DNA from: Escherichia phage DT571/2
DNA length: 3,432 nucleotides
Sequence record: KU159289.1
Reading direction: 5' to 3' (one strand)
Below, piece by piece: positions 1 to 3,432 of this stretch; within the stretch, counting starts at the first letter, position 1, and each line of letters begins with the position of its first letter. Position numbers and translations under genes: made by a program. The notes beneath the pieces are model-generated. The model made no database searches, was not told where the DNA came from, and saw nothing but the letters and a program-made list of their open reading frames with translations.

Positions 1-120
1 ATGGCACTTAAAACTAAAATTATTGTACAGCAGATTCTGAACATAGATGACACTACAACTACTGCTAGTAAGTATCCTAAATATACAGTAGTTTTAGGTA
101 ATTCTATTAGTTCTATTACT
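1..120 (+). other. N-terminal module (aa 1-40), putative virion attachment region of the fibre
   Basis: Non-repetitive, hydrophobic-rich segment MALKTKIIVQQILNIDDTTTTASKYPKYTVVLGNSISSIT that precedes the low-complexity shaft. In modular tail fibres the N-terminus is the conserved part that docks to the tail. The assignment is by position and analogy only. Confidence 0.4.
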
Positions 121-3100
121 GCTGGTGAATTAACTGCTGCTGTAGAGGCCTCTGCAGGATCCGCTGCTGCTGCTAGAGGTTCTGAAATAGCAGCTAAGGA
201 CTCTGAAAATAACGCTAAAGATTCAGAGATTCAGGCGGGTATTCATGCTGGTGCTTCCGAAGCTTCAGCAACTCAATCTGCTGCCTCTGCTACTGAGTCA
301 GAAAGACAGGCGGGTTTAGCCCAAAGCAGTGCAGATAATTCTGCAGCTTCTGCGCAAGAATCAGAGGGATTTAGAGACTCTGCAGAATTGGCAGCGCAGA
401 ATGCTGAACAAAGTCGTTTACTAGCTGAACAAGCTAAAACAGCTGCGCAACAAGCTCAAATAGCCGCAGAAGCTGCTAAGACTGGTGCTGAAACAGCTAA
501 AGATGGAGCTGATGCTGCTGCTACCACTGCTGGCGAACATGCTGCTGCTGCAAGGCAATCAGAACTAAACGCTAAGATTTCTGAAACTAATGCTGCTGGT
601 TCTGCTACTGAAGCCGGTGATAAAGCTATCGATGCTACTACTGAGGCAGATCGTGCTAAAGCTGAGGCAGATCGTGCAACTCAGATTGTTGATAGTAAAC
701 TTGATAAAGTAGATATTTCTGGTTTTATCAAAGTTTATAAGACTAAAGCAGAAGCTGATGCCGATGTTGTAAACCGTGTGCTAGACGAAAAGGTTCTAGT
801 CTGGAACCAAACTAACTCAAAATTTGGGTGGTACAAAGTAGCTGGAACTGCTGAGACTCCAGTATTAGAGTTAGTAGAAACAGAGCAAAAGTTAGTTTCT
901 GTTAATAACGTTCGTGCAGATGATGGGGGTAACGTACAGATCACCCTTCCTGGTGGTAACCCCTCTTTATGGCTGGGTGAAGTTACTTGGTTCCCTTATG
1001 ATAAAGATTCAGGTGTTGGCTACCCTGGTGTTCTTCCTGCTGATGGTCGTGAAGTTCTTCGTGCAGACTATCCAGATACTTGGGAGGCTATTGAGGCTGG
1101 CTTAATTCCTTCTGTACCAGAAGCTGAATGGCAAGCCGGTGCGTCTCTTTACTTCTCTACGGGTGATGGCTCTACAACCTTCCGTCTACCAGATATGATG
1201 CAAGGACAGGCATTCCGTGCACCAACTAAAGGCGAAGAAGATGCTGGCGTTATTAAAGATCAGATTCCTTATGTTGTGACAGTTAATGGTATCTCTCCAG
1301 ATGATATAACTGGTAACGTTGAAATTGATACCTCACTACAAGGTACTGTTAGTATTAATCAAGGCGGTACTGGTGCAACAACTAAAGAAGACGCCCGTAT
1401 AGCCCTCGAGTTATATAGTACTACGGAGGTTGATTCTGCTTTAGCAGATAAGGCTGATATTGCTACCACGTATACTAAGATGGAGGTTGATTCTGCTTTA
1501 GCAGATAAGGCTGATATTGCTACCACGTATACTAAGATGGAGGTTGATTCTGCTTTAGCAGATAAGGCTGATATTGCTACCACGTATACTAAGATGGAGG
1601 TTGATTCTGCTTTAGCAGACGCTAAAACTCAGTCAGATACTGATTACTTATTAAAAGCTAATAACCTTTCGGATTTGGCAGACCGTGCTGCCGCATGGCT
1701 TAACGTGCGACCCGTTGGTTCAACGCCGCTGGCTGGTGATCCTGTTGGCGACTACGATGCTGTTACTAAGCGTTGGGTAGAGAATAAGATTAACACCGGT
1801 ACAGTAGGGCCAACAATGAATGGTGTCATGAACTATGGGGTAGGTGACTTTCACCTGCGGGATAGTCGCGCATACATTCAGCCGTACGAGGTGGTGAGTG
1901 ATGGTCAGTTGTTGAATCGTGCTGACTGGCCCGAACTCTGGGCGTATGCGCAAATGCTATCGCCAATTAGTGACGCTACCTGGCTGGCTAACCCAAATCA
2001 GCGCGGCAAGTATTCTACTGGTGACGGCACAACGACCTTCCGAGTGCCAGACCGTAATGGTGTTCAGCCTGGGTCAATATTCGGCTTGTTCTGCCGGGGG
2101 GACGGCGGGCAAAGTGGCAACGATGGGTATATCTACGAATCAGGAGCACCTAACATCACAGGCCGCGTCGAATTACACGGCGGCGGGTCCGCAAGTATTA
2201 TCAACGGTGAAAGTGGCGCGTTCCATGGGTCTGGTGGCGCGGATTCGCAATATCGGACGCCAAGCAACCTAACTGTTAGTAACGGCGCGGTCTCCTACGG
2301 CATCATTAACCTGGACGCCTCGAGGGTCAGCGCGATCTATGGTCGGACCGTAACGGAGTTGCGTCCAAATAACTTCATGGGTGTGTGGGTTATTCGAGCG
2401 TCAGGCGGGTTCGTGGCGGCGAATACGTCTTGGAGTGTGATCAATGGTGATGCGACACGTCCAGCTGACGGCACAATTGCTCAAGGTGGTAACATATTCT
2501 CATTGTACAAGATTAGTGGCGCCAATGAGGCTGAAGCTAGTTTCTGTGCCCGTGCCGATATCGGCGGTAACTATTCTGCTCGTATTTCCGTAACGAACAG
2601 TACCACACAAAGAAGCGCGAATCTGGATTTTGACGAAACAGGTAAACTAACTATACCGAATAGTATAGTTGTGAACTCGGTGAACTCCGATTTTGACGGT
2701 GTATGTTGGGCGGATTCCGCCGATAAAGTACGCTGGCGTATGGGGATTAACGACGCTTCGGGCAATTTTAAGTTGCAATCATATGACGCGTCGGGCGCGT
2801 ACCGAGATACCGTCGTGGAGATCCCCGGAGCGGGAACAGGCGGAGTAGTGTGGGCCCGTGATATAACCATTCGCCCGACTACCGACGGTCCGGTGAAGTC
2901 TTTCGTTCTACACAACGCAAAAGATTCAGTCCCGGCTGGTAATTTCCGCACGATGTGGGATTCGGTTAATATCAATAGTAACCAGATCTATAAATATTTT
3001 GAGAAGGGAAACGGCACTGGCATTACAATCAACTGGCCTTCATCTGGTGGTGTTCTTGCCTTGCAAGGCACATCGGGGCGGGACTTTAAGAAAGATATTG

Positions 3101-3432
3101 TCAATGCAGACGTTACAGAAGCGGTTGCACGTATTGAACAAATGCGCATGGTGAACTACGTGTATAAGGACGATGTGCAGGAGCGCGTCCGCTTCGGCAT
3201 AATTGCCGAGGAGGCTGAAGCGATTGCACCTCAATACATCAAACATCGAGAAGAGACGTACGATGTGGAGGTGGACCCAGAGACTAACGCTATTATCGGT
3301 GGTAAGACCCGCGACAGGCCGTCGGTGGATGTAAACCCGATCGTTATGGATTTGATGGGTTGTGTGCAGTATCTCAATAAGCAAATCGAGGATTTGAAGG
3401 CAGAGATAGCCGCGCTGAAGGCAGCGAAATAA
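1..3432 (+). CDS. Phage long (L-shaped-like) tail fibre protein, 1,143 aa, with C-terminal intramolecular chaperone / autoproteolysis domain
   Basis: Single ORF spanning the whole window, ATG at 1-3 and TAA at 3430-3432, no in-frame stops. The translation shows an Ala/Ser/Glu-rich shaft, two tail-collar-like motifs (STGDGSTTFRLPD, STGDGTTTFRVPD), the L-S-D-L-A-D-R-A-A-A-W-L-N linker motif common in tail fibres, and a C-terminal chaperone-like domain ending in a heptad helix (QIEDLKAEIAALKAAK). The N-terminus (KYPKYTVVLGNSISSIT) resembles, from memory, that of phage T5 L-shaped tail fibre pb1; this is not verifiable here, so no gene symbol is assigned. The true start cannot be confirmed because there is no upstream sequence. 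Confidence 0.9.
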   Translation: MALKTKIIVQQILNIDDTTTTASKYPKYTVVLGNSISSITAGELTAAVEASAGSAAAARGSEIAAKDSENNAKDSEIQAGIHAGASEASATQSAASATESERQAGLAQSSADNSAASAQESEGFRDSAELAAQNAEQSRLLAEQAKTAAQQAQIAAEAAKTGAETAKDGADAAATTAGEHAAAARQSELNAKISETNAAGSATEAGDKAIDATTEADRAKAEADRATQIVDSKLDKVDISGFIKVYKTKAEADADVVNRVLDEKVLVWNQTNSKFGWYKVAGTAETPVLELVETEQKLVSVNNVRADDGGNVQITLPGGNPSLWLGEVTWFPYDKDSGVGYPGVLPADGREVLRADYPDTWEAIEAGLIPSVPEAEWQAGASLYFSTGDGSTTFRLPDMMQGQAFRAPTKGEEDAGVIKDQIPYVVTVNGISPDDITGNVEIDTSLQGTVSINQGGTGATTKEDARIALELYSTTEVDSALADKADIATTYTKMEVDSALADKADIATTYTKMEVDSALADKADIATTYTKMEVDSALADAKTQSDTDYLLKANNLSDLADRAAAWLNVRPVGSTPLAGDPVGDYDAVTKRWVENKINTGTVGPTMNGVMNYGVGDFHLRDSRAYIQPYEVVSDGQLLNRADWPELWAYAQMLSPISDATWLANPNQRGKYSTGDGTTTFRVPDRNGVQPGSIFGLFCRGDGGQSGNDGYIYESGAPNITGRVELHGGGSASIINGESGAFHGSGGADSQYRTPSNLTVSNGAVSYGIINLDASRVSAIYGRTVTELRPNNFMGVWVIRASGGFVAANTSWSVINGDATRPADGTIAQGGNIFSLYKISGANEAEASFCARADIGGNYSARISVTNSTTQRSANLDFDETGKLTIPNSIVVNSVNSDFDGVCWADSADKVRWRMGINDASGNFKLQSYDASGAYRDTVVEIPGAGTGGVVWARDITIRPTTDGPVKSFVLHNAKDSVPAGNFRTMWDSVNINSNQIYKYFEKGNGTGITINWPSSGGVLALQGTSGRDFKKDIVNADVTEAVARIEQMRMVNYVYKDDVQERVRFGIIAEEAEAIAPQYIKHREETYDVEVDPETNAIIGGKTRDRPSVDVNPIVMDLMGCVQYLNKQIEDLKAEIAALKAAK
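121..684 (+). other. Ala/Ser/Glu/Thr/Gln-rich low-complexity quasi-periodic shaft region (aa 41-228)
   Basis: Strong compositional bias visible in the translation (e.g. SAASATESERQAGLAQSSADNSAASAQESE, AEQAKTAAQQAQIAAEAAKTGAETAKDGADAAATTAGEHAAAA). It contains 21-nt (7-aa) periodic sub-repeats, e.g. gctaaggactctgaa at 193-207 vs gctaaagattcagag at 214-228, and the 16-nt exact direct repeat ctgaggcagatcgtgc at 641-656 and 662-677. Alanine is encoded almost entirely by GCT. Confidence 0.7.
964..1224 (+). other. Tail-collar-like domain 1 (aa ~322-408)
   Basis: The segment GVLPADGREVLRADYPDTWEAIEAG...YFSTGDGSTTFRLPDMMQGQAF fits the phage tail collar pattern as I recall it (c-d-G-x-x-L-x-x-x-x-Y-P-x-L-f-x-x-i-G ... 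G-d-G-x-t-t-F-x-L-P-D-l-r-G). Boundaries are approximate. Confidence 0.55.
1426..1619 (+). repeat. In-frame tandem direct repeat, 57-bp unit x 3 perfect copies + 23-bp partial fourth copy, encoding the 19-aa unit EVDSALADKADIATTYTKM
   Basis: Identical 57-nt units gaggttgattctgctttagcagataaggctgatattgctaccacgtatactaagatg at 1426-1482, 1483-1539 and 1540-1596, then a partial copy gaggttgattctgctttagcaga at 1597-1619. The sequence just upstream (YSTT, nt 1414-1425) looks like a degenerate edge of an older copy. Confidence 0.95.
1813..2070 (+). other. Tail-collar-like domain 2 (aa ~605-690)
   Basis: VVSDGQLLNRADWPELWAYAQ...KYSTGDGTTTFRVPDRNGVQPG repeats the same pattern as domain 1, but in the GC-rich codon style. 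Boundaries are approximate. Confidence 0.55.
2071..3075 (+). other. Gly/Ser/Asn-rich distal module, putative receptor-binding (host-range) domain (aa ~691-1025)
   Basis: Gly-rich beta-type composition (GDGGQSGNDGYIYESGAPNITGRVELHGGGSASIINGESGAFHGSGG ...) located immediately upstream of the predicted chaperone cleavage site. That position is where the distal receptor-binding domain sits in chaperone-dependent fibres. I recognise no catalytic motif. Confidence 0.45.
3076..3429 (+). other. C-terminal intramolecular chaperone / autoproteolytic domain (peptidase S74-like; aa 1026-1143), predicted to be released after cleavage following Ser1025
   Basis: Ser1025 (tcg, 3073-3075) and Lys1030 (aag, 3088-3090) have the S-x4-K spacing of the Ser/Lys dyad of endosialidase-type chaperone domains. 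They are followed by DIVNADVTEAVARIEQMRMVNYVYKDD, an acidic/hydrophobic core and a terminal heptad helix LNKQIEDLKAEIAALKAAK. Recognised from memory of the family, not from an HMM search. Confidence 0.65.

Follow-up and report, generated by a model that had tools for sequence, protein, structure and literature searches.

The LtfB-derived distal segment of a fused side tail fibre gene in Escherichia phage DT571/2: cassette structure and a candidate determinant of O81 specificity

Which part of a chaperone-dependent tail fibre decides the host, and is that part one module or several? The question is raised by a stretch of 3,432 nucleotides (nt) from Escherichia phage DT571/2 (sequence record KU159289.1), analysed at its full length and here called the window, in which one long open reading frame (ORF) encodes a fibre protein. 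A sequence-only reading had singled out nt 2071-3075, an in-frame segment encoding amino acids (aa) 691-1025, as a Gly-rich distal module that would recognise the host receptor. We find that this segment is the published receptor-recognising end of the side tail fibre protein LtfB; gene, fusion, chaperone and receptor assignment had been described before. The segment is a mosaic of at least three cassettes of differing conservation, not a single module. Our overall reading, which we hold with a probability of roughly 0.85, is that the mature distal end of LtfB is joined here to an LtfA shaft and that it is chaperone-dependent and directed at the O81-type O-antigen. At only slightly better than even odds, we also favour a variable insert near its start (V1) as the main determinant. 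The identity of the gene, its junction, and the sub-architecture and mosaic distribution of the segment come from the present analysis; the host-range phenotype is taken from the literature.

A fused ltfA-ltfB gene

By tblastn, aa 691-1025 correspond to aa 315-649 of LtfB, with 100% identity to the protein of DT571/2 (AJA41760) and 99.4% to that of DT57C (AJA41627). The full protein aligns over aa 1-942 with chain d of PDB entry 8hqz (DT57C LtfA, 'L-shaped tail fiber assembly'; phmmer, E=0), and its N-terminal tail-attachment region is homologous to LtfA and T5 pb1. With this N-terminus and a distal part identical or nearly identical to LtfB, the product groups with the lateral tail fibres (LTF) of the DT57C/DT571/2 type. 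The arrangement of two genes and a branched fibre is absent: there is one fused ORF, and the docking N-terminus of LtfB (LtfB aa 1-233) is deleted.

Compared base by base, nt 1-1838 are those of DT571/2 ltfA (KM979355) except at nt 824 and for one additional 57-nt repeat. Nucleotide identity to DT571/2 ltfA is 99.9% over nt 1-1562, and megablast matches the first ~2060 nt to the same gene. Mismatches to ltfB cease after nt 1827, and at nt 1839 the sequence begins to diverge from ltfA. The crossover interval between them maps to positions 74005 and 71916 of KM979355. No record with the whole gene in a single place was found by megablast among 50,697 phage records.

These features are those of a known mutant. 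DT571/2-ABF (GenBank KU159289) is a spontaneous mutant that was isolated from an ltfB-opal phage by selecting for growth on strain HS3-104 (Golomidova 2016, Viruses 8:26, PMC4728585). Deletion of the docking part of LtfB by fusion is its defining feature, and section 3.8 of the paper describes 'a large deletion from 71916 to 74004' together with one more copy of a 19-aa motif; the fused protein has 663+480 = 1143 residues (PMC4728585). Because the ORF length, the deletion end-points, the extra 19-aa repeat and the parent sequences all match the paper, we infer that the window gene is the LTF gene of this laboratory mutant; every point of the published description fits.

At the protein level, aa 573-659 are identical in both parents, with LtfA-specific residues stopping at aa 572 and LtfB-specific residues starting at aa 660. 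The published amino-acid junction (LtfA 1-663 joined to LtfB 288-767) is a few residues off, as residue 660 in the window is already of the LtfB type (T, not D). The nucleotide crossover falls at aa 610-613; the nucleotide coordinates of the paper are right and its amino-acid coordinates approximate (PMC4728585).

Two further differences from wild-type ltfA lie upstream of the junction. The additional repeat copy is visible as an offset-57 alignment to ltfA, and the authors speculate that it compensates for the loss of LtfB (PMC4728585). The sole base substitution, Y275F, changes a Tyr that is conserved in LtfA of DT571/2, DT57C and DT530. It falls within aa 223-471, the phiEco32-gp14-like region proposed for LtfB docking, and is not mentioned in the text of the paper (PMC4728585). 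Besides the extra repeat, Y275F could be a second candidate compensatory change stabilising the fused fibre, or it could be a strain or sequencing difference.

Table 1. Features of the 3,432-nt window, in order of position (identities of segment parts refer to fibres of other specificity unless stated)
Feature	Nucleotides	Strand	Residues and remarks
Fused ltfA-ltfB ORF, complete	1..3432	+	1143 aa + stop; only long ORF
ltfA-derived part	1..1827	+	tail-attachment N-terminus, Ala-rich shaft, first collar-like domain, 19-aa repeats, start of shared distal module
Substitution TAT->TTT, Y275F	824..824	+	sole base substitution against the DT571/2 ltfA reference
57-nt (19-aa) tandem repeat VDSALADKADIATTYTKME	1425..1619	+	3.4 copies, 100% match (Tandem Repeats Finder, TRF); one copy more than wild-type ltfA
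ltfB-derived part	1828..3432	+	0 mismatches against DT571/2 ltfB nt 700-2304
Crossover interval ATGAACTATGG	1828..1838	+	11-nt microhomology, identical in both parent genes
Second collar-like motif STGDGTTTFRVPD	2014..2052	+	aa 672-684, just upstream of the segment
V1, Gly-rich variable insert after the collar-like motif	2071..2376	+	aa 691-792; 33-39% identity among the three Ltf specificities; Gly 19.6%
Conserved core VWVIRASGGFVAANTSWSVINGDATRPADG	2377..2466	+	aa 793-822; 90-97% identity across fibres of different specificity
Neck, beta-hairpin region	2467..2655	+	aa 823-885; 35-43% identity among paralogues; semi-conserved, exchanged independently of V1 and V2
V2, hypervariable, length-variable distal tip	2656..3015	+	aa 886-1005; 5-14% identity to paralogous fibres
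Pre-cleavage strand, end ...GGVLALQGT	3016..3072	+	aa 1006-1024; 52-90% identity to other fibres
Peptidase_S74 intramolecular chaperone (PF13884)	3073..3429	+	aa 1025-1143; Pfam 40.5 bits, cut-off 22, aa 1026-1079

The remaining ORFs of the window are short overlaps of the 1143-codon plus-strand ORF. A weak 21-nt tandem repeat was also identified at nt 628-681 in the Ala-rich shaft (2.5 copies, 78% match, encoding ...EADRAKAEADRAT...). It probably reflects a heptad-like shaft periodicity.

Cassettes in the distal segment

The boundaries of the parts listed in Table 1 were taken from an alignment with paralogous fibres, and the identities compare the three Ltf specificities. The sequence-only reading had treated the 335 aa as one distal module. 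They instead contain a near-invariant block of 30 aa and at least three parts whose conservation differs widely. The same reading had noted that no motif could be assigned to the 335 aa, and this was borne out: the segment alone gave no Pfam and no NCBIfam match, and PHROGs places it only in 'tail fiber protein' families.

Both ends of the segment lie where they had been placed. The second collar motif expected upstream is present at aa 672-684, though Pfam scores it below threshold: over aa ~600-800 the Collar profile (PF07484) gave 16.8 bits (E 0.0067) against a cut-off of 24, covering only profile positions 38-54 of 57. A family profile aligns this second collar-like region to the first collar region of LtfA in 8hqz_d (E 8e-6), and a marginal Pfam tail-collar match lies at aa 385-400. 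At the other end, where a cleavage site had been proposed, Ser1025 (nt 3073-3075) and Lys1030 (nt 3088-3090) form an S-x4-K dyad in ...LALQGTSGRDFKKDI at the start of the S74 domain, whose Pfam match runs from aa 1026. A Ser-Lys dyad is a hallmark of the S74 family, after the chaperones of K1F endosialidase and T5 pb1. Autocleavage is thus predicted between Thr1024 and Ser1025; in the published work, too, the cleavage site was predicted from a conserved motif (PMC4728585). The P..GG..ALQGTS columns of the pre-cleavage strand are invariant in the family alignment. An NCBIfam match to AdcR in the chaperone region was rejected as spurious (16.6 bits against a cut-off of 175).

The segment contains 14.0% Gly, 11.0% Ser, 8.1% Asn and 6.6% Thr. 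Together these make up 39.7% of its residues, against 27.8% in aa 1-690. Richness in these four residues, as previously described, is therefore real, but the Gly-richness is concentrated in the first 100 aa rather than extending over all 335: Gly reaches 19.6% in V1 (aa 691-792) and 10% in V2 (aa 886-1005). The repeated G-x-G and N-x-S/T stretches that had been remarked on are at chance level. In composition-preserving shuffles 6.4 G-x-G were expected and 7 are present (P=0.47), and the corresponding values for N-x-S/T are 4.7 and 6 (P=0.33).

The guanine-plus-cytosine (GC) content of the gene climbs from ~0.41 to 0.52-0.57 around nt 1600-1900. At third codon positions (GC3) the T5-like N-terminal part (nt 1-1380) has 0.22, compared with 0.43-0.63 for the distal modules downstream (nt 1681-3429). 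A composition step at nt ~1680 had been taken to mark the swapped-in part of the gene, and in one sense it does. The step is a real, older module boundary, and its position matches the beginning of a distal module that ltfA, ltfB, phiKT, PGT2 and bob share at 90-96% (ltfB homology begins at nt 1717 and the phiKT alignment at ~aa 564). It is not the junction that made this gene. We rejected that explanation because the same GC rise is present in both parental genes and the crossover lies ~140 nt downstream, inside the shared module. The composition suggests that the distal cassettes were acquired from phages of different codon composition.

The closest relatives of the individual parts lie in different phage groups (Dhillonvirus, Tunavirus and an E. 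coli prophage), which implies exchange of cassettes. V1 is 87% identical in the Dhillonvirus bob; the neck of that phage stands at 39%, and its V2 is unrelated. For the neck, identity is 83% in PaulFeyerabend (Dhillonvirus) and 75% in P0002, and the V1 sequences of those two are at 31-40% (31% in PaulFeyerabend). Tunavirus ADB-2 matches in V2 (70%), the pre-cleavage strand (90%) and the chaperone (85%) and is without the collar module and V1. The E. coli prophage protein P0121 is similar to that of ADB-2 (V2 ~70%) and likewise without these two parts. The N-terminal half of the second collar region is 91-96% identical in bob, phiKT and PGT2. Thus bob, PaulFeyerabend, ADB-2 and the podoviruses phiKT and PGT2 each share single cassettes and none shares all, and they differ from the LtfB fibre in their virion attachment domains and morphotype. 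This distribution shows that V1, neck, and V2 plus chaperone have been swapped as cassettes across morphotypes, the breakpoints being the conserved core and ~aa 886.

An exhaustive phmmer search found only two strong relatives of V2 among 1.84 billion cluster representatives. Weak V2 matches, with E between 1e-9 and 3e-4 and as many as 15 stretches in one protein, were to Gram-positive FctA or MBG repeat proteins and were rejected as repeat or composition artefacts. A word-index search of aa 880-1025 came back empty, as if V2 had no relatives. That idea was discarded, as the search missed even the identical LtfB, and tblastn, a longer query and phmmer all found relatives.

A PDB sequence search with the protein and with the family profile found no solved structure over the segment, and a T5 pb1 chain was absent from the matches of either query at E<=1. 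In entry 8hqz, the model of LtfA is limited to its N-terminal part. For aa 574-1025, an AlphaFold2 monomer reached a mean predicted local distance difference test score (pLDDT) of 65. It is confident at aa ~633-733, 763-793 and 813-893, which form long beta-hairpins, and poor in the Gly-rich V1 loop (aa ~724-763) and in V2. The neck, with long beta-strands, reaches a pLDDT of ~88-94. A model of the tip only is all-beta, with a mean pLDDT of 55.6. In both models the segment contains beta-strands only, consistent with the beta-rich fold that its composition had suggested. A fold comparison gave nothing in the PDB: Foldseek with the AlphaFold2 model returned no match at E<=0.001, and no solved collar structure was among the PDB matches. 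Foldseek against BFVD returned tail fibres only, including a collar-domain-annotated protein (E 2.9e-8) and a T4-type short tail fibre (E 0.016).

The predicted fold also bears on whether the segment is a passive adhesin or carries an unrecognised activity, tailspike-like, that modifies or depolymerises the O-antigen. The authors state that the way in which the O-antigen layer is breached by the fibre is unknown (PMC4728585), and such an activity would offer an answer. However, Pfam, NCBIfam, PHROGs and PDB sequence searches of the segment found no catalytic domain, and the predicted architecture is one of thin beta-hairpins and not a beta-helix. We regard an enzymatic segment as very improbable.

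Host range and the site of O81 specificity

ABF plates on E. coli HS3-104, with an efficiency of plating of ~1, and on C600, but not on HS1/2 (Table 1 in PMC4728585). HS1/2 is the host recognised via LtfA of DT571/2 (O87), and the ltfB opal mutant loses HS3-104, which has an O81-type O-antigen gene cluster (PMC4728585). O81 is assigned to LtfB, O87 to LtfA of DT571/2, and an O22-like antigen to LtfA of DT57C (abstract and discussion of PMC4728585; later papers). The specificity that the sequence-only reading had left unassigned, in a part that it considered the most likely to be novel, is therefore published, as is the gene.

The source paper is internally inconsistent on this point: O81 and O87 are exchanged in section 3.8 and the legend of Figure 4, whereas section 3.6, the abstract and the discussion give O81 for HS3-104 and LtfB (PMC4728585). 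We take O87 for LtfB and HS3-104 in section 3.8 and the Figure 4 legend as a slip and use O81.

The fusion bounds the determinant. LtfB-specific residues of the mature fusion are confined to aa 660-1024. Because these residues begin at aa 660, and because the chaperone would be removed from the mature fibre, the switch from O87 to O81 would be encoded in aa 660-1024. On this comparison of the parents the host-range determinant must lie in that interval, nearly all of which is the segment. The idea that the segment is the host-range part of a chaperone-dependent, polysaccharide-directed fibre thus agrees with its complete identity to LtfB, with the plating of ABF and with the position of the LtfB-specific residues.

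The fibres are needed only for passing the O-antigen shield, and the terminal receptor is BtuB (PMC4728585). From the gene architecture and this phenotype, we infer a route of infection in which the S74 chaperone (aa 1025-1143) would drive trimer folding of the distal part and then cleave itself off at Thr1024/Ser1025. The exposed distal 335 aa would bind the O81-type O-polysaccharide of HS3-104 directly and reversibly, with no recognisable enzymatic domain. Binding to O81 would let the virion pass the O-antigen shield and reach BtuB.

Within the segment, V1 is our leading candidate for the main determinant of O81 specificity, at slightly better than even odds and by analogy with LtfA. In LtfA recombinants that changed host, no more than a portion of the divergent region had been acquired, and that portion is reported to be 82% identical to the phiKT fibre. 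The fibre of phiKT shares an O22-like host with LtfA of DT57C, and its identity to that protein is 83% in V1, against 35% for the neck, 6% for V2 and 24% for the chaperone. Because the 82% match fits V1 (83%) and not V2 (6%), we deduce that the mapped site in LtfA is V1 and that the tip is excluded; V1 of LtfB, being homologous to that site, would be the best O81 candidate. Recognition by the tip, which had been proposed from its position, does not agree with this mapping. V2 may be a tip or cap module that adds a second contact.

Several points weigh against this reading. The experimental evidence is 'for LtfA only' (PMC4728585), and V1 is assigned in LtfB by analogy. Purified lipopolysaccharide (LPS) did not inactivate these phages, and it inhibited their adsorption only moderately (PMC4728585). 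The structures were modelled as monomers, and confidence is low for V2 and the V1 loops. A second known fusion, LtfAB of DT530(1) (KU236381), has its junction at nt 2341-2345, equivalent to window nt ~2386-2390 (aa ~796), where the conserved core begins. This natural chimera combines the whole V1 of LtfA from DT57C with the core, neck and V2 of LtfB. The phage does not grow on 4s and shows no more than residual inhibition on HS3-104 (PMC4728585). If V1 acted alone, the opposite phenotype would be expected; the result hints at a role of the neck or V2, or it reflects no more than a defective fibre, which is the authors' view.

In the classical picture, which the sequence-only reading follows, the receptor-binding head is the domain beside the S74 chaperone. 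V2 (aa 886-1005) would then be the O81-binding site, and V1 would be just a variable loop on the surface of a structural, collar-type domain. Of all parts V2 diverges most, and it varies in length. With the chaperone it has travelled as a cassette into ADB-2-type and prophage fibres that are without the collar domain and V1, as expected of an autonomous receptor-binding tip. The DT530(1) chimera, with core, neck and V2 from LtfB, retains weak activity on the host of LtfB and none on 4s. In the L-shaped fibre of T5, the solved C-terminal domain adjoins the chaperone (5aq5, 4uw8) and is described as the receptor-binding domain. However, the fragment that switches specificity in LtfA is 82-83% like phiKT, a level that excludes V2, and the host-switched recombinants retained the V2 of the recipient. 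In addition, DT530(1) is described as a compromised fibre and is weak evidence for this reason. We consider V2 as the O81 site unlikely.

It is also possible that V1 and V2 both contribute, either as a composite surface in the folded trimer or as two separate glycan-binding sites, so that full O81 activity needs a matched pair. In ABF both are from LtfB and the fibre is fully active, while DT530(1) combines V1 of LtfA with V2 of LtfB and is nearly inactive on both relevant hosts. That V1, neck and V2 vary and move independently would fit diversifying selection on each. Yet the LtfA recombinants that combine a foreign V1 with their resident V2 are fully functional on the host of the donor, and matched pairs are thus not generally needed. 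The authors credit the extra 19-aa repeat for the difference between ABF and DT530(1) (PMC4728585), and Y275F is a further confounder. A requirement for both parts seems to us about as doubtful as recognition by V2, and V1 remains the preferred determinant.

Two phages were considered as correlates of host and cassette and found uninformative. PGT2 (MG201401) has a V1 of 39% identity and shares neither V1 nor V2 with LtfB. LAMP was isolated on 4s, and its V1 and V2 are unlike those of the matching Ltf; it has several fibre proteins. For PGT2, the GenBank host field reads 'E. coli 3-104', whereas the genome announcement gives 7s as the isolation host.

Known fibres and significance

Next to the ABF fusion fibre itself, a close known system is wild-type LtfB of DT571/2 and DT57C, which shares with the segment the S74 chaperone and the assigned O81-type receptor. 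Wild-type LtfB is a separate protein docked on LtfA in a branched fibre, whereas in the window gene LtfB lacks its N-terminal 233 aa and continues in frame from LtfA. DT530(1) LtfAB is an independent spontaneous ltfA-ltfB fusion with the core, neck, V2 and chaperone in common (99.5% nucleotide identity from window nt 2374). It differs in having its junction at aa ~796 rather than ~610, V1 from LtfA of DT57C and no extra repeat, and it is functionally compromised. LtfA of DT57C and DT571/2 has the same architecture from the second collar to the chaperone, with 92-93% identity in the N-terminal half of the second collar and 90-97% in the core. It differs in V1 (35-39%), in V2 (8-13%) and in the O-antigens recognised (O22-like and O87, respectively). 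T5 pb1 (4uw8, 5aq5) is a fibre of the same type and tail position in a related phage, also with an S74 chaperone. The L-shaped fibre of T5 binds O-antigen polymannose (PMC4728585).

As gene and function are published, the segment carries little weight as a discovery. New here are the exact nucleotide junction with a small correction of the published amino-acid junction, the cassette boundaries (aa 691/793/823/886/1006) and the distribution of each cassette among other phages, the deduced equivalence of V1 with the site mapped experimentally in LtfA, and the unreported Y275F. The cassette boundaries coincide with natural and laboratory recombination points. They provide a sharper map for engineering of host range in T5-like and related siphophages. 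If the role of V1 is confirmed, swaps should target the ~100 aa between two near-invariant blocks.

A more speculative possibility, which we consider unlikely, is that each arm carries two independently exchangeable glycan-recognition modules. A side-facing site built by V1, the Gly-rich insert of the second collar-like domain, would set O-antigen specificity, and the rare V2 tip, moving together with its chaperone, would bind a different ligand. If this were true, the assumption that the tip is the receptor-binding domain would mis-assign specificity in a fibre family that spans Tequintavirus, Dhillonvirus, Tunavirus, phiKT-like podoviruses and prophages.

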